From Lytechinus pictus (Eukaryota): DNA of 64,000 nt. Location of the stretch: contig NC_087250.1 in the NCBI RefSeq assembly GCF_037042905.1, forward strand, positions 18,292,001-18,356,000. The letters run 5' to 3'. Positions 6,571 to 55,135 of the stretch are shown one piece after another; the first letter of the stretch is position 1, and each line of letters begins with the position of its first letter. The notes under the pieces were generated by a model. It worked only from the letters and a program-made list of their open reading frames with translations, did not search any database and was not told the origin of the DNA. A program made the translations under genes and the position numbers.

Positions 6571-7333
6571 CTTGGTTGATAGGATGTATTCATGCATTCC
6601 GATTTATCATTAGTGATCAAATGACCATCTTGCTTTTTAAAAACCCAAGTTCACAACATTTTTCTTGTTTGATAAAAGGTTTGGGACGTGAATTCCACGA
6701 TATAAATGACACATATGATGGGCTAATGTATAAGCAGGGACATGAGAGGTATAAGCAACATTTTTTTCATGCTTAATTAAGTTTGGCATGAGATGGACTT
6801 GGTCTTTCTTATGATTCAAGTCTATTTTATACCAATTTTGTTTTAATCAACAATCAATGTTTTAAGTCTCATGATTTCAATTTCAAAACATCTTTGTTAA
6901 TTAAATATTCATTTTTTCCTTAGCATTTGCATCTTCTTAATTTATCAAATTTAAATTATAAGATATCATTTTTGCTGAATATCCTTTTTTTCACCTATTT
7001 TCATAGGCCCTAAGATACATTTCTGTAGTAAGCACTATAAATACATTGCAAGCTATTATCATTTGTTTGATATTACTATTTTATAGAATCATCTTTTAAT
7101 TTCTTTCAGAAAGATATTTGACAAATTACTTGTGATATCCATGCTTTAGCTGTAGAGTTTAAAATCTTCATTAAACTTTATTTAATCCGTTGTTTATCTA
7201 TTTTCATTCAGAGTTTCTGAAAACGTAAACATATCATTTGTATCATGTAAAGAATTTCAATCTACCTTAAAAAGTAATGCACTAAATAAACTGCTCTGTC
7301 TACTACACATGTACATATAAGTTTTGATTTTAA

Positions 7334-7790
7334 AGGTCAAGCGGCCTCCCCAGAAAAAATTCGATTTGAATTAATAGAAAAAAAATCAACCGAGCATAAT
7401 GCTGAGAATTTCATCAAAATCAGCGTCGGTTGTAAAATAGGAACGTTATGAAATTTTCAAGTTTGGCTTATTTTTCACAACACAGTTATATGCACAGATC
7501 AGTGACATGCAAATGAGACAGTCAATGATGTCCACATGTTCAGGGGGGGGGGGGACTAATCTTGGTTTCACTTGACAATGAAGAGAAAATTTAAATATTT
7601 CATCTCGTAGAATAAAAAGAAATAGTTTGCATGCCGACTGGGATGTACATATAAGTTTGTAGTCAAGCAAAACTTTAAAAATGTCATAACTTAATATCTT
7701 TACATCAGATTTTGATGAAATTTTCAGTGTTACGCTCGTTGTGTTTTTCTCTTTTTATTCAAATCAACTTTGTGGGGGTGGACTTGTCCT
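7334..7790. mobile_element. Kolobok-type MITE (relatives at ~56285-56878 and ~61521-62127)
   Basis: TTAA|AGGTCAAG...GACTTGTCCT|TTTA, with long imperfect inverted arms. Confidence 0.7.
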
Positions 7791-35100: not shown

Positions 35101-35264
35101 TAGATATTTGTAAAATTGAATTTGGAAACTTTTGCTCGCGCACAATTTTAGTTGCCTAACTTATATTAAAATTTTCTTTGGATTTCTTGATCAGTGAAAA
35201 AACGATTTAACAGATCGGGTCGTCTTTTGCTTCGTTAGTGTGTGCGGCGTGCTTCATGTTGATG

Positions 35265-35461
35265 CCATCATCATCACCATCATTGCCATCATCATCACCA
35301 TCAACGCCATCACCATCATCATCACCATTACCATCATCATCATCATCATCATCATCACCACCATCATCATCATCATCACCACCATCATCATCATCATTAC
35401 CACCATCATCATCATCATCACCACCATCATCATCATCACCACCATCATCACCATCATCATC

Positions 35462-35532
<71 letters not shown>

Positions 35533-35572
35533 CACCACCATCGCCATCATCATCACCATCGCCATCATCATA
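35265..35572. repeat. (CAT/CAC)n trinucleotide microsatellite
   Basis: Seen directly. It generates the spurious poly-S/poly-I/poly-M ORFs. Confidence 0.95.
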
Positions 35573-36082
35573 CGATATGTACGGAGGCTACTCGCATATG
35601 ACGTCACAAATCAAATAATTAAAATTCTAATAACTTTGTTTTTCTTTGATTTTCCTCAAACCTTCACCAATATGTTCATGGTATTTTACAATAAAATTTT
35701 TGTCAGGGTAAACTTTCCCCTTAACTGTTGTATATCTGAAGAATTTGTTTGCAAAAGGAGTTAGATACTCTTTAGACCATTCCGAGAAAATCGTGAATTT
35801 TTTTATTCTCTCATATTGCAATATTCTTATGCGAAACCAAATGCACCCTTCCATGTAAACATAGAATTGGGTAAAAAGGAAATCTACCTGTCTTCATATT
35901 TCTTTCAAAAAATTCCATTGAAGATTTAGCCCCTTTTGCAAACAAGATGAAATGGATCCAATCCCTTTTGAATAAAAAAAGTGATTTTTCTTTGCCCTTT
36001 TTAATCACGATTTAATGGAAATTTCAACTTTTCTTTGGTATCATCAGAGCGACTAAAAAATCTATACATATTGAGACAACCA

Positions 36083-36740: not shown

Positions 36741-37816
36741 TACCCTACCATGTGAACGTAAACTTGGTTGTAAGAGAAATCTACCTCTCTTCATATTTAA
36801 AAAAATATTTTCCCCCAAAAGTACCTTTGTGGATCTAGCCCCTTTTGCAAACTAACTGAAGTGGACCCAACCCCTTTTGAAAAAGTGATTTTCCTTTGCC
36901 AATTTTTCATTTAATTGGGAATTTCAACTTTTCCATGGTGTCATTTTACAGAGAATAAACAACCTATTCATTGAGACAAACAAAAAATCAAATTTGATGA
37001 AAACGGATCTTACCTCTACTGATAATGAGCTTTTCATTTGTTGTAACCATTCTTATAATCAGCCTGAGTTTCACCTTATTGTGAAAGGAGCACTATAAAG
37101 CTCCTTCCGACAAAATTATAATAACTAGCGTAAGTTTGCGCATTTCTACAGTAGGGGAATTTCCTAATTATATAAAAAATATATTTATATATATTAACTA
37201 GTGAGTAATATAATTGTTTTTACCTCACGATTTTGTTTGTATTTTAATTGACTAAAATCAATAGAAATCACTTTATAATAAAATGTGGTTGATGACAATG
37301 CCTGCTTATTGTGTATCCAAATACAGTTAATACAAAATATAGAAATGAAAAAGGAAAAAATATGAAGAAAAAAAAATTGAAAACGATTACAAAACAGACA
37401 TCGATTATAAAAAGATTTCGAGCCCTTCTGGTTAAAAAAAAATATATATTTTAATTCCAAATCGTGATGATCATATGGTCGGCTGCCACTTGAAGCTGAT
37501 TGGACTTTAGTCCGACCACAAGGCTTTATAGCAAACTACAATTCTGATTTTAGGATACCCATCTTTATGCCGAACTTCAAATGCAAATTTTCTTGGGATT
37601 TCCTGTTCAATGCAAAATGCGATTTTGTTAAAAAATCGCATCGTCTTTTGTTCGTGTAGTGTGCGGCATGCTTCATGTTGAGGACATCATCATCATTATT
37701 ACCACCACCGTCATCATCGTTATCATTCTATCATTAATATTATTTAGTTATTTATTTTAATTACTAGTATTATTGTCATAATAATAAATATTAATGGAAG
37801 ATGAAAATGATGGGGG

Positions 37817-38058
37817 GTGGTGATGATGATGATTAATGATGGTGATGATGATTAAGGTGGTGATGATGATGAAGGTGGTGATGATGATGATGATGACGAT
37901 GATGGTGGTGATGATGATGATGAAGATGGTTGTGATCATGATGATGATGGTGGTGGTGATGATGATGATGGTGATGATGATGGTAATGGTGGTGATGATG
38001 ATGATGATTGTGATGATGGTGATGATGGTGATGATGGCGATGGTGGTAGTGATGATGT
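37817..38058. repeat. (ATG/GTG)n trinucleotide microsatellite
   Basis: Seen directly. Confidence 0.95.
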
Positions 38059-38602
38059 TAGTGACAATAATATGTTGGGGTCTCACAAAAACTTCAAAAC
38101 ATATCTTTCCAGTTTTCATTTCAAAATTTCATTTAATCACGGTTGCATCATCGAGTACAAAAAAACAGTATCTCTACACCCTGATTTATCACTCGTTTTA
38201 AAATAATGCAAAGTTATATTTCTGTTTATTGTTTACAATTACTCCACATTTTTATAAAATATGCATTACATTACAGTATTATAGTGCCTTGATGCTCCAT
38301 CTTGGCCCAAAAGGCCGATATTTTTCAAAGCCTTGGCCTTGCCCTTGAAGTTTTTGAGCTTTGAAATTTCAAAGCATTTTCAAGACATTTTATTTTTATT
38401 TTGTACTTTCAACAGCTTTTTATGTACTAAACTTATTATTTTCATTGTTGTGTATGTTTAATGGCAATAATGGCAAATATTACCATAAAATACCCATCAG
38501 CAGCAGCAGTAGTTTAAGTGTAGTAGTTTTACCTCCTAAGTTGTTATTATAATTGTCACCATGATGATGATATCAACTGAAAGGTCAATTAATAATATCA
38601 TT

Positions 38603-39074
38603 AATAATAATAATTGGCATTTATATAGCGCTTTATCAGTCTACGACTGCTCAAAGCGCTTCACAATTATTATTACCCGGTCATTGGATTCATAGCATTT
38701 CAAGCAGCCTGTTAGGCACACATTTGCTAAACCAACCACAATGGCAGTAGTTTCCTAGTCTGCTGGGCAAACCCTTCACTCGAGTTAAGGGTCTGAATGT
38801 GCAGCCTACTCATGCCTTGTGTACTGAAGGCTCTCTCGCTGTTTTGTATGTGCTAGTCTTTGCGTGGAGGCACACTTATTGATCAAAGTTCCAATCAGGG
38901 TCTGTGCCTGCAGACTAGTCGTTTCCTACCGGTACCCAATTAGCACCTGGGTGAGAGTGGCAAAGTGTGGATTGACGCCTTGCCAAAGGACGCTAGGCCA
39001 TGGTGGGATTCGAACACACGACCCTCTGATTTAATACAAGGCAAGAGTCGGAACCGCTACACCACGGCGCTTCC
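38603..39074 (-). mobile_element. tRNA-derived SINE with Nin-like central domain and L2-like 3' tail
   Basis: Minus strand: GGAAGCGCCGTGGTGTAGCGGTT...GTTCGAATCCC head, CACTCTCACCCAGGTGCTAATTGGGTACCGG core, AAAGCGCTATATAAATG(ATT)n tail. Confidence 0.85.
38756..38917. mobile_element. Short TAG...CTA MITE with 9-bp TSD (Academ-like)
   Basis: TAGTCTGC...GCAGACTA flanked by GTAGTTTCC / GTCGTTTCC. Confidence 0.7.
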
Positions 39075-39898
39075 ATATATTAATAATAATATTAATATGT
39101 TACTGTAACATAACTTGAAGCAAGCCGATGGAAAGAGTTAGTAAGCAGTGGGAGCAATTTAGTATATGAAGAGTTTAGTTGCAAAAGGGGTTAGGTCCAC
39201 TTTTTACCATTCCGAGAAAAACCAAGTTTTTTTTATTCTCACTTACTGCAATACTCTTATGAGAAACTAACTTGTCATGATGTACTACCCTATCATGTGA
39301 ACATAAAATTGGGTATAAAAGAAATTTACCTGTCTTCAATTGTTTTCTATTTTTGCAACTAAACTGAAATGAATCCAATCTATTTTGATTAAAAAAGTGA
39401 TTTTTCATGTGAATTTCAACTTTTTGTTTTCATCAGAATGACTAAAAATTTAGAGGTTTTCAGACAGAATACAATAAAAATTTATGAACAATGGACCTAA
39501 CCTCTTTTGACAAATTAGCTCTCATTTTAGAATAGTTTGTTTTCAAAAGGGGTTAGGTCCACTCCAAGAAAATCATTTTTTTTAATTCTCCCATATGGCA
39601 ATATTCTTATGCGAAACTAAATTTTCATGATACCCTACCATGAGAACATAACATTGGGTATAATATAAATCTACCTGTCTTCATATTTTTTTTAATATTC
39701 TTTTCCAAAAAAATACTGTGTGGACCTACCCCTTTTGCGAGAGAGCTCTTCATATGTAAAATGGAACCAGGTGGGTGTTTCATAAAGCTGTTCGCTAGTT
39801 ATGAATGACTTCAGGCACGAGTGGTGACCCTTTCTTGTAATCAATGTCATATCCCTATATAGATGTCTTAGCAACTAAGATTGCATTCCAGTCAAGCA

Positions 39899-40083
39899 CA
39901 GGGGTGTGAGTGGTCACAAATAAAAAGATCTGAAAAAAGCTGAAGAGTATTGAAAAAGTCTGACATAGAAAGAGCTCCCATATTTTTTGTACAGAGGAAA
40001 GCCAGATATAAGCTGAAATTCAGCTGAAAATCAAAACAAAAAAAATCTGAAATCAGATAAAAATCTGAACTCTCACACCCCTG
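39899..40083. mobile_element. hAT-type MITE nested in a Harbinger MITE
   Basis: CAGGGGTGTGAG...CTCACACCCCTG. Perfect 8-bp TSD GTCAAGCA. Confidence 0.88.
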
Positions 40084-41951
40084 GTCAAGCATTACATCAG
40101 GCGTACCTTTACAAACAGCTTAATGAAACACCCACCATTTTGTGGGATAGAGGTGTAAGCAGAGAAAAAGAATAAGTTTTTAGCCATGAAAACGAGTCAC
40201 ATGTATAAATCACATGTCATGCGACCTTATTAACTGCTCCTTTTTCAAAGCTTATCATAATCCACGTTTCCCAAGACATTTGCTCCAGCGACAATATCAT
40301 TTCCTTTCACACATTAATGGGATTACCAACTTCAACCCTGGATTTTATCCTAAACCTAACGAAAAACCCTTTTGCAACCCTAACCCTATATCTTAGATGA
40401 AATAAGGCCTGGAGCAATTGTCGCCAGAGAAAATGTTGTGTTACCATAATCCAGTCACGTTGCAGAGCACCAAATAAAGAACTACCAATGTAATGACTGA
40501 ATCAGACGAAATAAGGCCAGGAGCAAATGTCGTGTCATAATAATCCACAGTCACTTTGCAGAGCATGAAATAAAAAACTAACAATATGACTGAATCATGA
40601 ATAGTCTGCGGACACAGACCCCAATTGAAACTTTGATCCACGGTTGGGTCTTCACACGAGACTAGCACACGCATATAAAGCTTACTGTTTGAACGAGAGA
40701 GCCTTCTGTACACATTGTAGGCTGCATATTCAGACCAGACCACTGAACTCAAGTGAAGGGTTGCACAGCAGACTACATCATCTTGTCTACGGACATGTAT
40801 GCAATTTACCCGGGTTATTTTAATCTAAATTACTGTACATGTATTGTCATAATAATAATGAACATTACTCGTACAGTGCATATTCACAAACATAACAACG
40901 CGCCGATGCATGCAACTAATCATATCAGAAATACATGTTAGAAAATAAATTATATAAAATAATCAAAACTGTGATGTCAATTGTATGCGTAGGATTACAT
41001 GTATATTTTTTAATAAATTACAATTGCATAATTCATTTACACTAGTATTCAAAATTAATATTCAAAATAATACATCCAAACTGTTACTTTGACTGGATAC
41101 TTATCTTTTAAACCCTTACTTAATGAGGGTTGAACCACCCCCACCCCCTCCCCTTTCGACAAAATTTGGTGAAAACTCTTCCGTCAAAAATCGTGTGCAT
41201 GTTTTGAGACCATTTTCATGAAAAATCTGATGCAAATTCCTAACTTTTCTATACATGCATCTCAACCTTAAAATTGTTCAGAAATATGATTTTGTGTATA
41301 AAATCAAAGCAAATTGTGTTATCAACCAAAACTCAGAAATCTAAGATGATTTTTGCTTTATCCCGAAGATAGGGATTTATTTTTTTACACTTTATCATTG
41401 TAAAAGGTCTCAGACAAAATTCATTGATAAATTATTAAGAAACAGAGAAGAAATGAAAAAATAATTACACACTTAGAAAATTAATTCTAATTTGCAGGTA
41501 GCTGTAAGAGAGTCAACATAAATAAATAGCATTTTACTACCTATTGTGAGTTTATAGGAAGAAAAAAATACTTCTGGGGATCGTTAATTAGGTATACATG
41601 TACTTATATAAATATATTTTTTTATATCTTTATGTGCACGCAGATTTCCAGGGTAGCTGAGATCTGATGGGCTGGTGGGGGGGGGGGGGCATATTCACCC
41701 CCCTTCCCAGTAAAATAAAACACCTGGTGGGTGTTTCATAAAGCTGTTCTTAAGTTAAGAGCGACTTTAAAAAACGACTGGTGAACCTTTCTTACGCTCT
41801 AAATAATCACCAATGAACATTTAATGGTCAATATCATTTACCACAAGAAAGGATCACCAGTCGATCTTAAAGTCGCTCTTAACTTACGAACAGCTTTATG
41901 AAACACTCATCTGGTTTTAAATAGCCCAGTTAAACTAGAATATGCCCTGGC

Positions 41952-42201
41952 TATGCTGCCCAACTTTGGCAAAAGGAAGCAAGTGACACATCAGTCATAA
42001 TTCAATTATTGTTAACACCCTTTGTATGCCCCACGTTGAGGCAATAATTGGGGGAAGAAATGATCGTTATATGGAGAGATATTGAAGACAATATGCTGTT
42101 AAATTGCATTGACGCCTATGTAAATCACAAAAACACATTGCTCATTTATAACAAATGATACTTTTGTAACTTGCTTCCTTTTGCCAAAGTATGGCAGTAT
42201 G
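41952..42201. mobile_element. MITE with ~35-bp TIRs
   Basis: CTGCCCAACTTTGGCAAAAGGAAGCAAGT ... ACTTGCTTCCTTTTGCCAAAGTATGGCAG. Confidence 0.7.
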
Positions 42202-42454
42202 GTACCAAACTATATAACTATGCAAATTATAACTAGACGATACGAACGTGTGTGCCTTTTAAATGGTTGTGATGTAAAAGATCTATTGGAATAATTAACT
42301 GATTAAACATCAAAATAAATTCTTTTTGTACTTTTGTCTTGTCTCGTCCCTTTTCATGCATGGAATGGGTAGAAAATTTCAGGAAATAATCTATGTCTGT
42401 AGATTTAAGAGCTCATTACATTACCAAGAGAGGAAGATACAGTACATGTAGATG

Positions 42455-42606
42455 CCAAATTTGAATTCCAACAGCTGAAAAAATGCAAAGTTTGAATTCA
42501 AACGGCTGAAAAATGCCAAGTTTGAATTCTAATGACTGGAAAAAATGCAAAATTTGAAGTCTAGCAGCTGAAAAAAATTCCATATTTGAATTCTAACAGC
42601 TAAAAA
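42455..42606. repeat. ~30-bp minisatellite (5 copies) in the probable 3' UTR
   Basis: Repeating TTTGAATTC(Y)AACAGCTGAAAAAATGC(A/C)AA. Confidence 0.85.
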
Positions 42607-42777
42607 TCATCCAACGACCAACACACCTTTGTGTATTGGTCACATCTACTCGCAGACGGCTTTTGATGTTGTAAACCAACATTCACAAACAGTTGCAACT
42701 CTTTACAAAAGTTTGCAAATCCCAACATGGTTGCACTCATCCCTTGGTGAGATAGGGTGGCAACTGATTGGAGTGAC

Positions 42778-43823
42778 TTAATCGATGTCAAACTTTGATA
42801 GATCAAACTGATCAGACATATCTCTTTGCCAGTGGCTGGATGATGACGTCCCTTCCGTGGCATTGAGGGAAGGCTTTCGATCGATCTCATATCCAAAACT
42901 CGCCATATCATCATCGACATCCTCATCGTCATCATCATCAGCATAATCCAAGTCACCATTTGCGGTTTCATCGGGCATGTTGCTATCGGTGTCACCAGGG
43001 CCGGACGGATGTCCCCAGATTACTTCGCAGAGTTGATAGAGAGGCCCAAACTTCCTCTTTCGGTTGTTATGCTCTAGATCATAATGCCACTTCTTTCGCA
43101 GGTACTTCAGCTTGTTGCGGATAACCATTGTGCCTTTCATGATCCCGCACTCGGCCAACCTCTCTTCAATTTGCTGGTAAACCACGTGGTTCTTGCACGT
43201 CCCGTCCATTTGATCCGTTATGTCCTTCTCAGCCCTTAACTTCAAAAGCAGGAGCTCCTCCTCTTTCGTCCAACTTGTATTAGGTTGTCGAAATGATGAG
43301 GGTTTAGTATGGCTTCTTTCTCCTGGACGTTGTAGCGGATGATGGTTTGATGGAATGCTTTGGCCAGGTTGCGGTCTTGTCAGATGATGGTTTAATGGAG
43401 CTCCTTGGCCAGATTGACGTTGAAGCGAATGATGATTTACTGGAATGCCTTGGCCAGGTTGCGGTTGCAGCGGGTGATGGTTTAATAATGGAACGCCTTG
43501 GCCAGTTTGAGGCCGTGGCGGATACTGCACCCCAGGAGTCATCAAGCCCATGGCCTTGGTGAACATGTCCATGAACTGCTCTTGCCCCGCTCTCAGTTCA
43601 CCGATGAGCTTCGCTTGCGATTCTTGGTGGATCCTTTCCATTCTCTTTTCCCAGGCTTGTTGAGCGGTAAGATGCTCATCCTCCTCCGTCTCCTGGCGAG
43701 GATTTTGATGAACTTCGCTCTCATGGATATCATTGGGTTCTTCCTTCACCGACGCGGTTGCTGCCAGCATTGTCCCCTGGTGCCCAGACTTCTCCAGTTC
43801 ATCCGTATTCTTCACAGAGGATG
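42778..43823 (-). CDS. Triple Myb/SANT-like (trihelix) protein, coding exon 4 (coiled-coil, Q/P/H repeats, third Myb/SANT domain, stop)
   Basis: Acceptor TAAACAG|CATCC in phase 1 continues the frame. Encodes WTKEEELLLLKLRAE..MDGTCKNHVVYQQI..L..G..IRNKLKYLRKKW..LCEVIWG. TAA at 42780-42778. Confidence 0.9.
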
Positions 43824-43914
43824 CTGTTTATATGTAAAATAAACATAATTTGGAAAAAGGTTTAGCATACTCAAAATAAAAATAAGAAAAAGTAGGGGAT
43901 TAATAGAAGTAAAG

Positions 43915-44150
43915 AAGAGGAGGAAGGAGGGGGATGGAGAGGAGGAGGAAGAGAAGGATGAGAAACAGAATACTGAGAAAAATATGAAGAAAGAGGAGGA
44001 GAAAAAAGAGAGGGAAGAGGAGAAGGAAGAGGATAAGGACAAGATACAAAAGATGTAGGAAAAGAAGGATAAAATAATGGAGACAGTTAGACAAGAAAGG
44101 ATTAGAAGGAGAGGAAGGAGGAGAGGGAGAGGAAAGGGAGGAGGATGAGA
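43915..44150. repeat. GA-rich low-complexity intronic tract
   Basis: GAG/GAA-rich purine tract seen directly. Confidence 0.8.
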
Positions 44151-44942
44151 ACAAGGTGGTGAGACTGGCCTGATATCTTGATCGATAAAAAATGCAATAT
44201 GATCTTTTGACCCCTAGGGGACCTCTGACCTCATCATCCTCATGAACAAACATATCTACCAGGTGTAAACACAATTAATGCAGAAATAAGAGCAAGCAAA
44301 ACAAAAACTTGAACATCTGTCTAACAGAATAATAGGAAAAGTGACCCAACTGTCGAACTTTGTTCAGGCAAGACAAACAAGGAGACAGAAGAGGAAGAGG
44401 GGAGAAGAAAAAAACAAAAATCAAATGAGTTAGTTTCCTCATAAATTTAACAACATTAGTCATTCCCTATAAAAATTGTCTTTTATTTTCTTTTTTTCTC
44501 AATAGTGAATGTCAGTGTCTTTAAACTAAGGTAAAATCAGTACCCCCTGTAAATTTATAATCGTGAAATTTGTATTACGGACAAATATAATGAAAACAAA
44601 TAATTCATTTTGATTTTGTGTTACCAACCCATATATTGATGGTCACAATTTATAGAATGACGTTTTATTTATCCATCCTGGCTATAACAACCATGACTTG
44701 TAGATCCATGGCTATACTTGTGGTTTTAAATACCCTAATCACTTTCATAAAATTCTGAGCAGGGGCGAAAAATACATGGGGCTCGGGGTGATTTAGTCAC
44801 TGGAATGCTCAAAAGAGCCCGAAAAAAAGTGCCCAAGATAATCCCAATTCATTACAGTCTTAAAGCTTATTCAATGCTGAAGATTATTTTGGCAGTAGTT
44901 TGTGAAAAGTACCCCAAGAAAATAGAAATATTTTTTGGACCA

Positions 44943-45157
44943 GGGCCGCGTCTTACAGAGAGTTACGATCGATCCGATCTATCACAACTGTGGATGACCA
45001 TTAAGTCAACATCTAAAAATGCAAATTTGTTCAATATATTTTTCTAGATATGATGTACATTCATACATTTATCTTTCTCTTGAAGATTCAGTATGATGAT
45101 GGATTTCCAGAGTTACGATTGATTTGATCAATTGTAACTCTTTGTAAGACGGGGCCC
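44943..45157. mobile_element. Harbinger-superfamily MITE (intronic)
   Basis: GGGCCGCGTCTTACAGAGAGTTACGAT...ATTGTAACTCTTTGTAAGACGGGGCCC in a CWG context. Confidence 0.75.
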
Positions 45158-45510
45158 TGATTCTGCTGAGGATATTTTGTGTTGGAATTGGTTCTACAAC
45201 CCAAGAACTATCCAAGAAGCACATCTAAGGACAGTGATTTCATAGTTTAATTTTTTTTTTCCATTCCCGAAAACCTATAATTCAAACTTGATCTAAAATG
45301 GTAATTCTGTTTTTGGATTCCCTTTTGTAAAGTTCTCCAAAATTCAATTCACATGAAAAGTAAAGAACCAAAATGTATTTTTCAATGGATTTTCACATGA
45401 AAAGGAAAGAACCAAAATGTAACCAGAAAACCACTGTACCTACATACATATGAAGGCCTGCTAATATTTTGATCAACACAGAAACGATAAAACTTCTAAC
45501 AGAAACCCAC

Positions 45511-46401
45511 CATTGCTTGCATCTGAATGAGTCTTCAGGTCGTCACCGATGGCACAACGGGCCCCCTCGTCGGTCACTGAACATGATCTAATGTTAGAGC
45601 CTGATGGCGATGAAGATTCTTCCTCCCAGCCAGGCTCTCTGGCATCAACACAGGCAATGGGCTTTTCTTCCTGCTCTACAAGTTCTTTATCGTCGTCGTC
45701 ATCATCGTCATCATCATCCTCACAATCCGAGTCTATCATTTTTTTAGGCAAACCATCACTCATACCACCAGGGTTATGCCCCCATATTGCCGCGCACAGT
45801 TCCCTGTGATAAATCTTGACTTTCTTTTCGCCCTCGCATCGGCTACCTTCCCTGAGCAACGCCTTCTGCCACTTGCTTCGGAGATACTTCAGTTTGTTTC
45901 TTACCACCTTGGCCTGTTTCACCACTCCACGCTCGGCCAGCTTCTTAGTAATGTCCCGATAAACGTGCTTATTATTGCACGTACCGTCCAGCCGCTCCCT
46001 CACCCGCTTCTCCGCCCGGAATTGCAGAAGCAATTTCTCCTCTTCAAGCGTCCAAACTCCCGTAACATGTTGCGTATGATGATTCAGTGGAACGCCTCGG
46101 CCAGGTTGCGGTTGCGACGGATGCTGTGCACCAGAAGTCATCATACACATCGTCTTGGTGAACATTTCCATGACTTGCATTTGGCCGGCGTTGAGTTCTT
46201 CTACGAGTTTCCGTTGCGATTCTTGGTGCCTTCTTTCCATTTTCTCTTCCCAGGCTCGCTGGGCGGCAAGACTCTCCTCCTCCTCCCGGCGGAACCTCTC
46301 GTGAAGTCGATCAAGCTGGACCCCAACCACTCTGGATACTGCAGAGGTTATCTCCTCAAGCCGAGTGTCCCTTACTTTCCTCCGTTTCCGAGCAGTAAGG
46401 G
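45511..46401 (-). CDS. Triple Myb/SANT-like protein, coding exon 3 (coiled-coil plus second Myb/SANT domain)
   Basis: Acceptor CTAAACAG|CCCTT and donor AATG|GTGGGT. 891 nt, phase 1-1, open throughout. Encodes WTLEEEKLLLQFRAE..LDGTCNNKHVYRDI..VRNKLKYLRSKW..LCAAIWG. Confidence 0.9.
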
Positions 46402-46667
46402 CTGTTTAGGCCAGAGACAAATGATATTGAGAAAAATGTTAACAATTTAGTAAAGAAAAAAGCATATCACTACAAAGTCAAAACAAAAAATGATAAATGT
46501 AAATGTTTAAAAAATTTGCTGAAGTCCGTTTGTGTAGTGTGTGGCAAGCTTTAGAATTCTTTTTTAAAGATAATGCCAGTTGTGGTAACAATCTCAAAAT
46601 GAGTGCAAACAGAATCCAATAAAAGGCCACCCTAGTGTTTAAAAATATGTGCCAACTGACTCTTGGA

Positions 46668-47317
46668 AAGAAGTGGAATGCCCCTGGCAGCCTCGCCTGC
46701 ATAACGCAATTCAATGTAGCAGCAGTGCTGACTTTGAAAATAACTACTGTAGTGAATAATTATTCATAAAAGAAAACATTCATATGATAATAAAACATGT
46801 TCATTGCTCCATTGACCCAAAATAACCTTTGACCTTGATCATGTAACCTAAGACTTGTGCTAAACAATCATGATATATGATTACCCGTATGTCTGTGATT
46901 CATGAACTAGATCCATAAACTTTCTAAGTTATCTGGCAATTTAACAATACCCCCAACACAGCCAAAGTTCATTAACCTTAAATGACCTTTGATCTTGGTC
47001 ATGCGACACAATGCACACATGGTGTTCAGGGATACATGGTTGCTCTTATGTCAATGGTTCATTAGCTAGATCCAAATATCCCTGCATGGCCAAAGTTTGT
47101 TGATGCTAAATGACCTTTGACCTTGGTTGTGTGACCTGAAACTCAGGTAGGATGTTCAGTAATACTTGATTACCCTTATACTGTATGTGCAAGTTTCATA
47201 TAGTAGGTCCATATACTTTCTAAGTTATGATGACATTTCAAAAACTTGACCTTGGTTAAGATTTCAATGTTGACGGCAACGCCTTTAGTATCACTCTGCT
47301 ATGCAGGCAAGACAAAA
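46668..47317 (-). mobile_element. Helentron/HINE-like non-autonomous rolling-circle element (intronic)
   Basis: Subterminal inverted CTCGCCTGCAT / ATGCAGGCAAG, tandem TGACCTTTGACCTT subrepeats, end GACAAAA, no TSD. Confidence 0.65.
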
Positions 47318-47655
47318 TGCTTAATTGCTGAGAAATTATCAAATTACATGTAAGCACAGAATTCCATTAAATGTTGGGTATTTTTCCGAGTAATACCAAT
47401 ACACCGTCCCACATGTCGTTTTATGTCAGTGATCATCATCAGAATTATCGGTTTACAGCTAAGATTTCATGATTCCACAATGATAAGTTTATTTCAATGT
47501 ACCAGATCTAAATCTATGATAATTCGGTGGCAATTAACCTTGATTTTAAAGACTTTCTCATGAAATAATTGTTTGCTGCAACTACTGTCTTTAACCTTTA
47601 AGCCCAATAGATTTAGAATTATTCTAATTATTATTATCATTATCATCATAGTTAC

Positions 47656-47835
47656 CTCTCATACTGCTATTTATACTGGAACCCGGTTCTTCAGAAAACT
47701 TCCTGATGTTCCTCTGGTCTTCTATGGTCAGTTCTCGCTTCTTAGCAGCTAACGAAAGCATTAGGCACTGGCGATCTAAGGGACCATCATTGTCATCTTC
47801 GGATTCACTTTCACTCATCCTCCTCTTTTGTTTAA
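47656..47835 (-). CDS. Triple Myb/SANT-like protein, coding exon 2 (basic NLS-like/acidic linker)
   Basis: Acceptor TTTTTTGAACAG|TTAAA and donor GAGAG|GTAACT. 180 nt, phase 1-1. Reads VKQKRRMSESESEDD.., in frame with both neighbours. Confidence 0.8.
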
Positions 47836-48074
47836 CTGTTCAAAAAAATATATTAAAACGGGGATGGGTAACTCTGCCTGCCCTAGTCTGATTTCTTCAA
47901 ACACAGAAATCTGTATCACTTTTAAAAATTAACTAAGAACAAGCGAATAGTACATTTAACAGTGTTGGTTACTACATGTAGGTCTGAATTTTTTTTATTT
48001 AATCCAATGCAGGAAAAAAATTACACGGGGGTGGGGAGCAATTTAGCCCCTTAATATTTGCAAAGTAGAGCCCC

Positions 48075-48230
48075 GGGGAATGTTTCATCAACATTTCTGT
48101 CCGACAAGATGTCAGATCTGACAACTTTCCTTGATTTTGATCGGCTGACGAGCAGTTACTATGGTAACTGTCGGATAAAATGGGACTTGTCAGATAAAAC
48201 GTCTGACAGGTCCTTTCAAGAAATGCTCCC
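48075..48230. mobile_element. Harbinger-superfamily MITE (intronic)
   Basis: GGGGAATGTTTCATCAACA...TTTCAAGAAATGCTCCCC with internal inverted TGTCCGACAAG motifs. Confidence 0.6.
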
Positions 48231-48906
48231 CAGGGAACTAAAAAGAAGCCCTGGAAATCCCAATTCATCAAAGCTTATCCAATGTTGAAGATTTAGAATG
48301 TAAGTTGTGCAAAATAGCACCTGGAAATTTTAAAAAATGCCTGATCCAGTGTAACCTTGATCACTGCACTCCAAAAAAAATTTCATTTTAGATTATTATT
48401 GCTCAATGAAGGCTGTGACTGCTGTCAGTAGCAAAATTAATTCACTTTGCTATCAAATGTAAGGAATATTTGACTTTGAAAGTATTTCATATTTTCTTAT
48501 CCTCTGTATATTCTTTGTACACTGAGTGATTTCAAGTTCAATGTTGACCTTTTGGTGTTGGTGTTAGGTCAATTTTTACAATTATAACACCACACATAAA
48601 ATGATGATGGTACCGAAAAGTCACTCACTAGTTGTTGAGATGTCAATAATGTGATCTGGATCAGTTTTACAAACTCTGAATAAGTTTTGGAGCTAGGGGA
48701 AGCAGTCCACACTTCAACACCAACACCAAGGACAACACCGGACTTGAAACCACCTAATTGTCTACCCGTCATTTTTGTACTTTACTGTATCCTTTGTATA
48801 CATTGTAGCTTTCTTATTTCTAATTTGATTTGTTTATGCTGTATATTTTTAATGCGAATGTGACAAGCTCTGAACTTTGAAATTCAAACATTAAGTGCAA
48901 ACTTAC

Positions 48907-49453
48907 CATTAATCTTCATCCTCTGATCAAATGCATGTTGTTGGTCTTCATCTTCAGTTGCTGAAACTGAGCCAGATAGGGGAGAGGAATCTTCTTCCCA
49001 ACCGAACGAGGGTTCGTCCCCATCACCATCAGCAGAGTCGATGGAATTGACTTCTTGCTTCACCAGTACATCCCTGCTAAGAGCACTCTCCAGGCCCCTT
49101 GCTGCGTTTTCATTGGTCACCCTGTCCTTACTATCATTGGCTTCTGGATTTGTGCACAGAGGATCATCACCCCATATCGCCTTGCACAGTGCGTCAAAAG
49201 CACCCACTTTCTTTTGGCACCCACTCTTGACGTTCCTTAGTGACTGAAACCACCTTACCTTGGTGTATTTCAGCTTATTTTTCACTTGCAGTCGGGTTTT
49301 CCGGACTCCGCACTCCGCTAAAGCCTTGGCGATCTGTTGATAGACGTACTGATTTTTACTCGTCCCGTCCATTTGAGCCTTCACGTTCTCATCGGCCCGG
49401 AATTCCAAAAGCAGTCTAATAGCATCTCTGGTCCAAGCTTCATTGCACGACAT
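48907..49453 (-). CDS. Triple Myb/SANT-like protein, coding exon 1 (start plus first Myb/SANT domain)
   Basis: ATG at 49453 with an in-frame TGA 10 codons upstream. Encodes WTRDAIRLLLEFRAD..MDGTSKNQYVYQQI..L..G..QVKNKLKYTKVRW..LCKAIWG. Donor AATG|GTAAGT, phase 1. Confidence 0.9.
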
Positions 49454-51078
49454 CTTTAGAACACTTTTGATTATTCCGCGTCAGAGAATCAGAAACAGGT
49501 ATGGCACCGCTGCAGTCAAAAGCCATCGACCCGCATGATTGTGAACCTCATGATATTGCATCAATTGAATGGTTAATGTTGCCTTGCTAATCCAGCTCAT
49601 CAAATTGTTTAGCAAGCAAAGGCAAACTTGCCAGTTGTACAGCACAGTATATTACAAGTTGTTAATTTCAGTTTAAAGGCACATGCCATTCAAAAGTGAA
49701 TATTTACACCTGATCATCAAAAAATTATTTTTATTTCACAAAATATATTTTTCAGGAACTGCAAAATTTGACAGTAGGGTATCAATTTATTTGTCTCTGC
49801 TTGTCCATTTGTCCTTCCTTCTTGTTGAAGCATTACTATTACATGTATTTCAGAAGGGCTAAACCACATAATAACCTATAAATTGAAAAGAAACAAGAAC
49901 AAAAATGAAAATCAGTTAAGAGAAAAGTCTCCATTAGACATTTTACATAATAACATTATTTAACGCTTTGCACGCTTAATTAATTTTAGGGGGATAATAA
50001 TGACAATTGTTTCCATGTCATTTTCTTTAAAAGACTTTAATTCCAGATATCCATATTTCACCTAGCCTTACTCCATGATGATATTTTCTTAATATTCTGA
50101 CATATACTTCTTCAACATGGAGCCTTGAACCGCCTCCCATATACAAGAGACACATCAAAACAAAGATGGATTTCTGCACTGGTCCACTGCTACCATCCAG
50201 TCTGTTGAGAATCTACAGGTAGGACTATGGTATGCCAATGCTGTATTGAGCACACACTTTAAAAAAATCATTAGAATATCACTTTTGTGACCAAAATTAT
50301 TAATTTCCATACAGTTGCAATTCAATTTTCATTAGTAACTTAGAATCATTTTTGTATTGACCAGAGCACTCAAAAACTTGAATTTTGGGCATATATTTGT
50401 GTTTACAAGCCCTCTATTGGTGGAAAGTAATATGCCAAGAAAATTTTCATTTTTCAAGCTCTATCTTTAATAAAGAAAAAATAATTTAAAGAATCATATT
50501 TACTTAAGAGCCAAGTTATAAAATGAAAAGCTGTAATGGAAACTGACAGTGTAAAAAAAATCAAGCATTTGTCCAAAAGAAAAAGAGAAAATAATCCAAA
50601 CATTGTCAACCTTATTTTGCCACACATAGAGATGTAACTGAGAACAAGGTTATATCATAACCTTGTTCATTGAATGAGTGGATTTCTGTAGGAAATCCAT
50701 CTTTGTAGATTAGAAACCAAGCAAATGTTTGTGATGTTATTTATTTTTACACATTCATACGCCTAATGCGTATGAAGGTGTAAAACAATTGGTAAATAAA
50801 AAGGTGAAAAATTGAAGGTTTCGTATCAGACCGATCTCGTGTAGATCCCTCGATCTGTTTGTCAACAAAGCAAATACTTAGTTTTAGGTCTGACCCTTGA
50901 ACCGCTTCGTTATGACGTACCTTTGATTCGCGATGTTACAAAATGCCGTTTTGAAGAACAATTTATAGATAAAAATTATTATTCAACGAATACTAAAATT
51001 CAATACATGATTATGAATGATTATTATAAAAATAATAATTACTTATAATCACATATCAAATTTTAGGAGAAAACTTAA

Positions 51079-51485
51079 TTACTTCTACTTCTACGACGAT
51101 ACTCAGCAGGATCCATAAGTCAGGATGTAGTGCTAAGGAAATGTCTTGGGTGCTTATCTGCAGTGCATACTTGTTGGGGCTTTTAAAACATTGTGCTGTT
51201 TGTGCAAGTAAAAATCTAGTTCCTTGGTTTAGATGTTGGTTGGAAGCACCCCCCTGAAGGCCTCCAATGAAGGGGCATCAAGGATGGTTTTGGGAAGCGC
51301 ATTCCACGCAGTCACTGTCCTGGGAAAATAGGAGTTCTGGTATAGTTGGGTGCGGCATGGAATAGCCAACAACTTCTTTGGATGATATTGCCGAGTATTG
51401 CTGGCAACCATAAGAGCTGTGTAGTGGTCTGCATTTAGTACCATCCTGTGTTGAATTTTGTACATGAGGTAGACTAGCCTGGAGG
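51079..51485 (-). mobile_element. CR1/L2-clade LINE 3' fragment
   Basis: The minus ORF ends LMYKI...NSYFPRTVTAWNALP..SLEAFR (FFPRT..WN.LP motif), followed by a 3' UTR and a (GTAGAA)n tail. Confidence 0.88.
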
Positions 51486-51560
51486 CGTCTGGGGAGTAAA
51501 AGTCATCTACTCTACGTAGGCTTACTCCCCACTGACGCCTGGCTTGCTTACGCATTGGTC

Positions 51561-52486
51561 TATACACACCGTAGGTTTTCCCACGGTGAAAGTAGACCTA
51601 AATTATAAGTTTTGGTTAGGATTTTGACCCCCAAATTTAATATTAGGGTGTCTGAAGCCACACTGAAAAGTGTCAGCATAAAACAGGCTGATTTAGGGGA
51701 AAATATGGCACATTTTTTCGGGAAGTTCAGGCTGCTAGAAAATGTGATCTGAATTGATAATTTACTTGTGTTTGGCATGTATGGAAAGAGAAAATTCAGG
51801 GGCTTCTTTTGACAGTAAGGACAAGTTCATATGATCATTTTAAATAAGGATTTAGAGATAAATTGCAAACCCTTATTTGTGTGTCGAAATTGACATTTCC
51901 CCATGCATTTTCTATGGGAAAATGAAATGTCTGTTTTGCACAATTTTTTTCACTTTGTCGCAATTTTTCTTTGTGATCTGGTTTCCAAATCTTTATAAAA
52001 ATCATACCATCAGAAAGAGCATAAAAAATCCTATTGGACTCTTTATGGACAAGTTTTTTGGCATTAATGATAAATTTATAACAGCTCTCGGAAGCTAAAA
52101 ATTTGGAATTGTGTGTGTCCATTTCTTAACTACACAGTCTATGGCAGAGAAATGCTGAAAAATGACCTTATTTCATTCTTCGTTTTTGCAGCCAATAATT
52201 GGATTTTTTTTCAAAAATGTTACATTTCTGTCAATCTGAAGGTCATTGCTTTTCAAATTCACAAAGAAAATGTGATATTTTCTTGAAATAAGAAAAATAA
52301 TTTTTTTCTCCAGACACACTATTAATAATATGTTTGTATATATTCCTTCAATAAATATTAGTTAATATGAAAAATAATTAAGAGCACGAGCGTTGACTTA
52401 CCAAGTCTGTTTTGGTCGCCATCTTGATGTCTTTGTTATCGATACCTAGAATCTGGCTAGATACCACACGTGTGACGGTGTGTATA
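51561..52486. mobile_element. Non-autonomous DNA transposon with short TIRs, containing a nested element (~51644-52321)
   Basis: TATACACACCGT ... ACGGTGTGTATA ends. Inner TAGGGTGTCTG ... CAGACACACTA. Confidence 0.6.
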
Positions 52487-52494
52487 GGCTAGGA

Positions 52495-53472
52495 TAGACA
52501 GCTGGCAGCCGTCTGTTTCGAGGAGTTTTTTAATTTTTTTAAATATTTTTATTTCTCCTCGTACACAGACGGCTCGCTATCGTGCAGCCACCATTAGGGG
52601 ACTTACAATGCGAAATCCCCCCGTCGGGGCTCTTCAATTTTTGTCTTTAATGAATCAAACTTTTGAAAATTAATGCGACCAAAATGCAAATTAATATTCC
52701 CTCTTGGCCTTAATTGCCAAAAAACGGGGAAAAAATCATGTTAAAACTAGCAAAAACAGTGACTTACCTCGGCTGTCGCGCAACTTCACTTCCCTGTTTT
52801 ATCCAAACTTAGTACATAAACATATGGCCATTGAGTCCCCTGTACAGATCGGGCTAGAACTTCAGTCTCTGTATTTGGTGAGTGAAGCCAACGGAGTTCA
52901 GCTGAACAACCAACGTAACAGAGACCGAAGCTTTTGGTCTAAGGCTAGTAGTAGTATAGCTGCCAATTTGAATTTAATACTTGCATCGGCAGACATAGCA
53001 GATAAATATCTAGACCAAAAGCTTCGGTCTCTGTTATGTTGGTTGTTCAGCTGAACTCCGTTGGCTTCACTCACCAAATACAGAGACCGAAGTTCTACTT
53101 CTAGCGCGATCTGTACAGGGGACTCAATGGCCATATGTTTATGTACCGGTATATAAGTTAGGATAAAACAGGGAGGTGAAGTTGCGCGACAGCCGAGGTA
53201 AGTCACTGTTTTTGTTCCTTTTAACTTGATTTTCCCCCGTTTTTTGGCAATTAATGCCAAGACAAGAGGGAATATTAATTTGCATTTCGGACGCGTTAAT
53301 TTTCAGAAGTTTGATTCATTAAAGACAAAAATTGAAGAGCCCCGACAGGGGGATTTTGCATTGTAAGTCCCCTAATGGTGGCTGCACGATAGCGAGCCGT
53401 CTGTGTATGAGGAGAAATAAAAATATAAAAAATTCAAAAAACTCCTCGAAACAGACGGCTGCCAGCTGTCTA
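52495..53472. mobile_element. Long foldback element (~445-bp arms, ~70-bp spacer)
   Basis: TAGACAGCTGGCAGCCGTCTGTTTCGAGGAG...CTCCTCGAAACAGACGGCTGCCAGCTGTCTA. The arms are reverse-complementary over their whole length. Confidence 0.92.
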
Positions 53473-53901
53473 ATATAATAATATTAAATATCATGAATCA
53501 TAAAATACTTATTACTTGCATCGGTTGATAAATATCATAAAATTTGCTTTATGATATTTATCAACCGAGGCAAAGTTACCCCCATTCTGCCCAATGAACA
53601 ACTCACAACTCAGGCCAACCTTGTTCATTGAATGAGTGGCCAGGTTGAGATCTCAAGTCATGACATGAGTCTCAGCATGCTCAGTCTCAGTCACAAACAC
53701 CGAAAATGAATAGGTGGGACCAAAGACAATTTTAATCGTGTTAATTGTTAAAATGTCCTAACTACTGACAGACGTAGACCGGTCCAAACTCAAAAGTCAG
53801 TCTATTTATTGAGCTGGAGCGGTAAAAAAGATCACACAAAAAGATTATGTTTATAAATATCCGTGATTCCAAGTTTATATAAAGGAAAGAAATAGTAGAC
53901 T

Positions 53902-54055
53902 ACTTACACAGTCACAGGAAATTGCCAGATACAGCTAGCTACGCCTACGGTACGGTAGCTCCAGCGGTACCGGGTATATCGATATCGGCAATCAGAGTTG
54001 CACGCATGCGCTGATACGTTTACGATACGGGGCCTGGCTATCGTCATGCACGGTT
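53902..54055 (-). promoter_or_regulatory. Probable promoter and non-coding first exon of the Myb/SANT gene
   Basis: Local CpG cluster, NRF1-like GCACGCATGCGC at ~54000, and a minus-strand donor TGT|GTAAGT at 53907-53902 facing the gene. Confidence 0.5.
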
Positions 54056-55135
54056 AAAAGTGTTTGATGGGGGCAGGGGGCCCAGGGGGGCCACTTCCAT
54101 TGACGAATGGATACCATGCGCGACCATGGGGTCTACATAAGCACCCTAAACACGTATTTTCCTTTTTCTGAAAATGCACCCCTTAACAAGTATTGGCGTG
54201 TGAAACAAACGATACTCATGGCAAGTTCCCTGAATTGACCCCCTAAACAAGTACAGCGATATTTTTATTGTTATGTCACGGACGTCGGTCGTCGGCCCAC
54301 CTTCACCCACATCATTGGGTTTAGTACAGCCCCACCTCCCACATCTCGCCCAAATCGTACTCTAAACACGTGGTGTTGACTGTTGGGGCAAAAGTACATC
54401 TTTATAAAACATTTTAATCTTAATTTTTTACACCCTCGCAAATTTGACCCTAAACACGTAGCTTTCCTAGCGAAAATAGATACTCTTTTTTCATTATTTT
54501 AGTGTTTTTGACACCCTTATCACGTTACGTACGTAACGTGTCCTATCTTGAAAAAGACATCCTTTTTACGTATTTTTTGGGCCGCGCATGCACTGGGCTC
54601 GTCAATGTAAGTACCCTGCGCCGCCGCGCGGGGGGGGGGGCCTTCTGGGGGCTTGGGAAATTGTTGATGTTGGTTTATAGAATACAATGAAAATGGCCTA
54701 TTGTAGGTATACTGACCAAGCAGCTAATCCCCTAATAATTCTAATATCATGCGAATGAGCGTAGCGACCGAGCGAAAAAACACACCACATTTTTCATATT
54801 ATTATGCATCAGCCTGATGGGTGTAATCACTATAGATGAGGGCATTTAACGATAAGGGGGGGGGGTAGGACTGATATCTGGAAATGGGTTTGCGGATGAT
54901 CTTATATACGCTCTCCGGCCGTTTTTGGTGGGCGATTTTCTCAAAATTTAGAGATTTTGAATGTAAAAATTAGGTATAATTGAAGTGATACCAGGGGACG
55001 AGGTTTTAATGTCAATGACATCCCTTAAAATAAGCTAATGAATGGATTGACCGAGCAAAAATGTTTGAAGTGAAACCTTGCATTCTGGAGGATATACACA
55101 TCCTTAACGTACTGAATGGGATACTCAAATGCATA

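Follow-up and report, generated by a model that had tools for sequence, protein, structure and literature searches.

A single-copy Lytechinus gene with three trihelix-type Myb/SANT domains, probably domesticated from a Harbinger transposon

We analysed a window of 64,000 nucleotides from the genome of the sea urchin Lytechinus pictus (assembly GCF_037042905.1, contig NC_087250.1, positions 18,292,001 to 18,356,000; unless another locus is named, coordinates below are positions in this window). Its minus strand carries LOC129263719, a gene encoding three Myb/SANT domains of the trihelix type that probably derives from the Myb-like gene of a Harbinger transposon. The coding sequence is distributed over four exons with a total of 2664 nt (Table 1), separated by three introns that all start with GT, end with AG and interrupt the frame in phase 1, and the joined exons encode 887 amino acids (aa) followed by one stop codon. 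A preliminary description of this DNA had proposed that three open reading frames (ORFs), listed as separate entries, belong to one spliced gene of exactly this structure. This four-exon model is correct, the product being identical at 887/887 positions to the RefSeq protein XP_054757599.2, whose sequence is shared by four RefSeq accessions. However, RefSeq already annotates the ORFs as one gene, and the model was thus public as an 'uncharacterized protein'. The limits of exon 1 had to be corrected in part: its coding portion stands, but the exon does not start at 49453 and begins instead near 49875, after an upstream exon. Searches by accession, locus and topic yielded no publication on LOC129263719 among titles and abstracts, mostly without subscription journals and without the supplements where urchin transcription-factor lists could include the gene.

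Table 1. Positions of the exons of LOC129263719 and of its presumed untranslated regions (UTRs) in the window.
Feature	Position	Strand	Description
Coding part of exon 1	48907..49453	-	547 nt; SANT/trihelix 1 (~49438-49163), acidic tract with GWEE block, phase-1 donor; PF13837 40.7 bits
Exon 2	47656..47835	-	180 nt (60 codons); phase 1-1; acidic after a basic start; without a domain; also in the RefSeq proteins of the two Lytechinus species
Exon 3	45511..46401	-	891 nt; basic motif (RKRRK), helix A (~46399-46124), short Q/P linker, SANT 2 (46057-45773), acidic tract, phase-1 donor; PF13837 36.6 bits
Exon 4	42778..43823	-	1046 nt; helix B (~43686-43540), Q/P/H linker of 45-nt repeats (43486-43326), SANT 3 (43275-43006), acidic tail, stop; PF13837 33.7 bits
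5' untranslated part of first coding exon	49454..49875	-	422 nt; contig pieces from 49873 (X15) and 49840 (X8); AG acceptor at 49877-49876
Probable 3' UTR, end not fixed	41000..42777	-	Suggested by low strand-biased depth in bin 41020-41563 and by a contig piece (40056-41749) with about the same depth
Candidate upstream first exon	52402..52450	-	Ends at GTAAGT donor; located in a short segment flanked by two dispersed repeats

Expression was evaluated with four sequencing runs aligned to positions 38300-54600, two of which are recorded as RNA-seq, about 6% of each being used. A contig of 2985 nt (X15/4, library type not on record) maps in order to 49873-48907, 46401-45511 and 43823-42924. Its first two pieces are separated by exactly 180 nt, which is as long as exon 2 and suggests that this exon is included. 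One contig from organism B likewise links exons 1 and 3, and exon 4 is covered by another. For the two RNA-seq runs, first mates covered four exon-only bins at 12.6-28.7x on the plus strand versus 0-0.44x on the minus strand, the pattern that a stranded library gives for an RNA transcribed from the minus strand, and the depth of an intron bin was 0.7x. The genome search revealed no processed copy, and the intron-less contig is therefore best read as mRNA. The gene is thus expressed as a spliced transcript. The predicted junctions were borne out at the level of the contig, which joins the exons at the expected borders, and of the stranded depth on the coding strand, but single junction reads were absent among the 15 joints listed, a list filled by repeat-derived joints (855 further joints exist). 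Three separate genes or pseudogenes are ruled out by the spliced contig together with the RefSeq match.

The three PF13837 matches that had been expected were obtained in exons 1, 3 and 4, all above the curated cut-off of 27 bits, and the profile search gave no real match in exon 2. The protein thus reads, from its N-terminus, SANT 1 and an acidic tract; the product of exon 2; a basic motif, helix A, a Q/P linker, SANT 2 and an acidic tract; helix B, Q/P repeats, SANT 3 and a last acidic tract. Exons 3 and 4 are collinear at the DNA level (blastn), with 77% identity over 199 nt in the helix region (expectation value, E, 1e-40), 68% over 191 nt in the SANT domain and 81% over 53 nt in the acidic run, so that the helix region proposed to be common to both exons is indeed shared; its basic N-terminal part has not been retained in helix B. 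Exon 1 matches exons 3 and 4 by blastn in the SANT domain only. As previously noticed, exons 1 and 3 both contain a GWEE block (9/12 aa identical) and both end at the same donor (AAT G followed by gt). The three SANT domains are 45-51% identical to one another, with synonymous sites near saturation. The linker of exon 4 consists of 45-nt (15-aa) Q/P/H repeats over 43326-43486, and L. variegatus has one more of these units.

Single-unit proteins from L. variegatus (P0024) and from a crinoid (P0015) helped to delimit the repeated segment. Each aligns twice over whole units (aa ~7-345 and 359-672/716, E 1e-21 to 1e-26) and a third time over SANT 3, so that the gene corresponds to about 2.5 copies of a complete Myb-like protein. 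The whole unit comprises a SANT domain, an acidic tract, a phase-1 intron, a basic motif, a long helix and a Q/P tail. The earlier idea of a triplicated module is therefore correct as regards exon duplication, but what was repeated, about 2.5 times, is a whole Harbinger-type Myb-like protein and not the SANT domain alone.

A full-length structural model computed without alignment had low confidence (predicted local distance difference test, pLDDT, 46; predicted template modelling score, pTM, 0.28) and was used only for the positions of its long helices, at residues 240-331 and 586-634. SANT 2 was modelled from a 47-row alignment with a pLDDT of 84, and the top six structural matches were GT-1 trihelix and Sap1 DNA-binding domains (probability 0.92-1.00, template modelling score 0.53-0.69). 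An atlas search gave matches of 0.86-0.88, to be taken as leads only. The predicted complex of helix A with helix B scored 0.04 versus a mark of 0.34, with alignments not used, and is evidence neither for nor against their association. The nearest solved fold to the SANT 2 model is that of plant GT-1 (2EBI/2JMW). Plant GT-2 factors carry a second trihelix domain, and members of the trihelix family are described as dimerising via a long helix (PMC6686422). However, identity to the plant factors is only 24%, the present gene is from an animal and has three domains, and its nearest relatives are animal single units. The likeness to GT-2 pointed out in the preliminary description thus holds as an analogy between convergent designs, but not as membership of that family.

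Copy number was assessed by genome searches, whose counts are lower bounds. The DNA of exon 3 was found at this locus only, besides D-run microsatellite matches, and protein searches of the genome detected no intact close paralogue. No pair of terminal inverted repeats (TIRs) brackets the gene, since the seven inverted matches across it are distant dispersed repeats, and the TIR of the live 9.8-kb Harbinger family described below is absent from the window. There is no transposase in the window or in the 9.9 kb on either side, and neither transposase nor TIR remnants were found in the introns; the nearest scored DDE_Tnp_4 match on the same contig is about 0.69 Mb away (150/402 candidates scored). 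The gene is therefore, as first described, free of surrounding TIRs and transposase, and the dispersed TIR-flanked copies that had been named as evidence against domestication were not found. A live transposon is ruled out by the single copy, the lack of TIRs and the lack of a linked transposase. More broadly, the locus could be a still-mobile or recently dead non-autonomous Harbinger element with a transcribed Myb gene. The Myb-like content and the expression, taken alone, would be compatible with such an element, as would the presence of two loci in L. variegatus. Nevertheless, the single copy, the missing TIRs and transposase, a conservation biased towards the domains and old internal repeats with an intact frame reduce its probability to a negligible level.

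The reading frame is open in both Lytechinus species and the orthologues are about 90% identical. Between L. pictus and L. variegatus, 401/412 positions are identical in the SANT domains and helices versus 411/464 in the linkers (Fisher p=3.7e-7), in line with the predicted conservation of the domains. Between the internal repeats, synonymous divergence (dS) is 0.7 for the helices and at least 1.8 for the SANT domains, partly or fully saturated, and the ratio of nonsynonymous to synonymous divergence (dN/dS) is 0.20-0.31 where dS is finite. Such saturation implies that the duplications are much older than the split between L. pictus and L. variegatus and that the frame has been kept since. For exon 3, a rough dN/dS of 0.20-0.27 is indicative only, because it combines 55 nucleotide differences from the organism B contig with 24-28 assumed amino acid changes taken from P0002, the two being assumed alike. 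The domain-biased identity and the dN/dS of the internal repeats thus point to purifying selection on the gene. Two RefSeq versions of the L. pictus protein (P0001 and P0003) differ at 24/887 residues, only 2 of them among the 273 SANT positions, indicating high polymorphism outside the domains.

Word-index protein searches returned only two Lytechinus clusters and one further protein, P0163; this was so among candidates longer than exon 3 (2/2106), near full length (2/7999 scored) and shorter (1/4924). No orthologue was present among 194 proteins drawn from all 50% representatives, a set in which an orthologue more than 50% identical would be hidden. Among annotated proteins, these results suggest that the gene is restricted to Lytechinus or its family, and the lineage specificity proposed earlier holds to that extent, no orthologue having been found outside Lytechinus.

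A protein search of the genome with exon 3 produced 41 candidates, of which 28 were matches. Four of these lie at this locus and 17 are dispersed, near-identical ORFs; the remaining 7 are other sequences. The 17 dispersed Myb ORFs have identical match scores and belong to a 9.8-kb element, two copies of which were compared and are 99.7% identical over 9.8 kb. A DDE_Tnp_4 exon lies 5-6 kb from the Myb ORF in 17/17 copies. The element ends in 16-bp TIRs, and a perfect 3-bp duplication (TAA, TTA or CAA) flanks it in 5/8 copies examined. The family, located at L029:2682-9901 into L035 (G000:C11:32054181-32064010) and at 16 further places, carries an intact two-exon Myb gene and a two-exon DDE_Tnp_4 transposase gene in convergent orientation. 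This element is a very young Harbinger family, possibly still active, in a genome with at least 150 DDE_Tnp_4 matches. In the Myb gene of the element, a phase-1 intron separates a SANT-acidic exon from one starting with a basic motif and a long helix, which is the plan of the unit repeated in LOC129263719; the latter differs in carrying about 2.5 such units in a single chain, without TIRs or transposase, and in being single-copy.

LOC129263719 is thus one spliced, transcribed, single-copy gene with conserved domains. We consider it likely that it descends, by domestication in the host, from the Myb-like gene of a Harbinger subfamily that has since decayed, that it was then lengthened by tandem duplication, and that it acts as a nuclear multivalent DNA-binding regulator of host genes. 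The ancestral unit would have consisted of exon A (SANT domain and acidic tract) and exon B (basic motif, long amphipathic helix and Q/P tail), with a phase-1 intron between them. In-frame fusion of the B end of one unit to the A start of the next could have produced a B-A exon, and duplication of this phase 1-1 exon would then give the order A / x / B-A / B-A. The basic motifs suggest a nuclear location. Three trihelix domains on flexible linkers could read DNA with avidity for clustered short sites, and the two helices might bind to themselves or recruit chromatin partners, making the protein a transcriptional or chromatin regulator of the host; sequences descended from the ends of the parent element may be among its targets. 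Such a fate has precedents, as MSANTD1-4 and NAIF1 are described as domesticated Harbinger Myb-like genes (PMC9392472), and the plant derivatives HDP2, ALP2 and SANT1-4 as components of chromatin complexes, which for HDP2 and SANT1-4 are histone acetylase or deacetylase complexes (PMC8616336).

Several findings weigh against this reading. The live family shares only 25-32% of positions with the gene in the SANT exon (pairwise E 6e-10 to 8e-14) and 20-23% in the helix (pairwise E 4e-4 to 1e-3), and in the tree it falls outside the clade of the gene; this low identity makes it a cousin of the gene and not its parent. The closest single-unit relatives, P0163, P0020 and P0031, are unnamed gene calls that were not placed beside a transposase, and two metagenome scans, with 591 and 376 pattern matches, gave no confirmed locus. 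The three domains formed one clade (97/75) in a first tree, built from 75/296 domain hits without P0163, but with P0163 included (23 rows) they are not resolved as such, appearing together in 8% of bootstrap trees, a joint grouping that is not rejected (approximately unbiased test, p-AU, 0.27). The structural matches of the SANT 2 model have E values of 0.2-0.6, none below 0.001. Finally, L. variegatus has two near-identical loci (LOC121417113 / LOC121417099; 886/899), on equally long contigs, which may be a tandem duplicate or two alleles. The description of the gene as a domesticated factor is supported by its single copy, absence of TIRs, conservation and expression. Its Harbinger origin has good support from the shared domain, the gene structure and the similarity to a Myb protein encoded by a genuine Harbinger, but falls short of proof.

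These relatives bear on two other origins. P0163 is 41% identical over aa 357-539 and 49-54% per domain. P0020 (SANT) and P0031 (helix) are also closer than the live family, and both are on ENA contigs of 7818 nt, probably one and the same. The closest relative in this genome is a relic (L031:5033-5279; G000:C2:19764030-19764280), a frameshifted and truncated SANT sequence about 50% identical to all three domains that lies among transposon debris, with no transposase within 9.9 kb around it; it groups in the tree with the three domains and P0163 (82/90). The unit could instead come from an older host Myb/SANT gene, long domesticated or never mobile, of which LOC129263719 would be a duplicate later multiplied internally. 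Annotated single-unit echinoderm proteins do exist (P0024 and P0081 in L. variegatus, P0015 in a crinoid), and the nearest relatives have no demonstrated link to a transposase. However, this genome contains no close match to P0024 (28-38% at best), the single-unit relatives are patchy and partly decayed, as transposons are, and the structure of the gene matches that of a proven element; an older host gene is therefore quite unlikely as the source. In the genome of L. pictus, a SANT ORF similar in sequence to L. variegatus P0081 lies at L033:4879-5316, with a second, different Myb-like ORF 1.5 kb away at 6823-7350 (G000:C1:27034878-27037349), and no Harbinger transposase was detected within 9.9 kb.

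The three modules could also stem from members of one transposon family that inserted separately side by side and were joined by splicing at a later time, since the domains are about as far from each other as from P0163 and are not resolved as a clade. This scenario would require two independent and identical fusions, as exons 3 and 4 share the unusual in-exon junction of helix to SANT domain in collinear order, and it would predict remnants of the kind that the introns lack; we hold it to be very improbable. SANT 2 was also considered as an unequal-crossover hybrid of SANT 1 and SANT 3, which the identical-codon counts (13/28, 13/28 and 19/34) do not support; the features that it has in common with SANT 1 or SANT 3 are also present in P0163 and are therefore ancestral.

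With the same Harbinger origin, the protein could have been kept for transposon control, binding with its three domains the ends of Harbinger elements or of miniature inverted-repeat transposable elements (MITEs) and tying up the transposase via its helices, as a dominant-negative factor or a silencing adaptor. According to PMC9392472, Harbinger Myb-like proteins bind element ends and transposase and bring the latter into the nucleus, and NAIF1 keeps these abilities, still binding Harbinger transposase and HARBI1. Human JRK is likewise described as binding its parent Tigger elements (PMC13538051), and a very young Harbinger family and numerous DDE_Tnp_4 sequences are present in this genome. 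However, no more than a relic is left of the parent subfamily in this genome, the live family has only 25-32% identity, and the divergence of the three domains from one another fits new targets better, so that transposon control appears unlikely as the job of the gene. A bolder variant is also unlikely in our view: the protein would be a single-chain multimer of Harbinger Myb-like proteins, with three diverged DNA readers and two interaction helices, serving in the Lytechinus lineage as a built-in Harbinger repressor or as a rewirer of a Harbinger-derived network of MITE sites in development.

Regulation of host genes by a domesticated Harbinger protein, the reading that we favour, places the gene beside vertebrate MSANTD1-4 and NAIF1, which are described in PMC9392472 as having a trihelix Myb-like domain and as being single-copy, spliced, without TIRs and under purifying selection. 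The present gene is of this kind in every respect tested, except that its nearest relatives are not known to be transposon-borne. The vertebrate genes have a single domain and are reported there to be 430-500 My old. LOC129263719 combines three domains with two helices, was encountered only in Lytechinus and presumably arose independently of them. Lineage-specific expansion of the related MADF genes is reported across animals (PMC10027918). Tandem arrays of the Myb_DNA-bind_4 domain are common to this gene and to teleost and tetrapod proteins that combine several PF13837 domains with TINF2_N, SCAN, KRAB or C2H2 domains (ZSCAN20-like): all 24 of the 24 chosen multi-match proteins scanned had 3-8 PF13837 domains, and 6/6 looked up were from teleosts. 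In contrast to LOC129263719, these proteins repeat the SANT domain and a linker, and none matched the helix profile, a weak test because one row of the profile was in an incorrect reading frame. As far as this test can tell, repeats that span the whole unit, helix included, were seen only here.

These results are tidy rather than surprising, as the gene model was public, genes of this type have been domesticated repeatedly and their domain commonly occurs in tandem arrays. They probably add an echinoderm case to the recurrent domestications of Harbinger Myb-like genes in vertebrates, flies and plants, and suggest a simple path by which a transposon gene of two exons can become a multi-domain regulator, by in-frame B-A fusion and then duplication of a phase 1-1 exon. 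Lytechinus pictus is an experimentally tractable urchin, and the gene, being seemingly young, could show what such a protein does soon after its capture.

At the 5' end of the gene, 47 additional bases of contig X15/4 precede the piece starting at 49873 and were not placed; together with the AG acceptor near 49875, they indicate that an upstream exon exists. The exon listed in Table 1 (donor 52402/52401) is a candidate and not a result, alternative donors being found at 50921/50920 and possibly near 53905. The 5' leader contains 12 upstream ATGs versus 8.5 expected from its composition, which is unremarkable. If the donor at 52402 is used, an ATG with a good sequence context would open an upstream frame of 59 codons (52402-52422 and 49720-49875), ending about 265 nt short of the main start codon; the 52 codons of this frame that lie in the leader have no Pfam match. 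Conservation of the leader in organism B is about equal to that of the coding exons. A fold-back element of 978 bp (52495-53472), 88% self-complementary and with an end that matches other places in the genome, is found immediately upstream of the candidate first exon. A 122-codon minus-strand frame (51229-51597) inside the presumed first intron has no Pfam match and presumably resembles the end of ORF2 of a long interspersed nuclear element (LINE). Downstream of the coding sequence, poly(A)-type hexamers occur at 41825, 41381, 41014 and 40824. Further along, two long ATC/ACC-type trinucleotide arrays in opposite orientation (35212-35634 and 37810-38093) give rise to spurious low-complexity ORFs. 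Just past the right end of the window, L061:655-5017 is duplicated in tandem, with repeated frames and a period of about 3260 bp.

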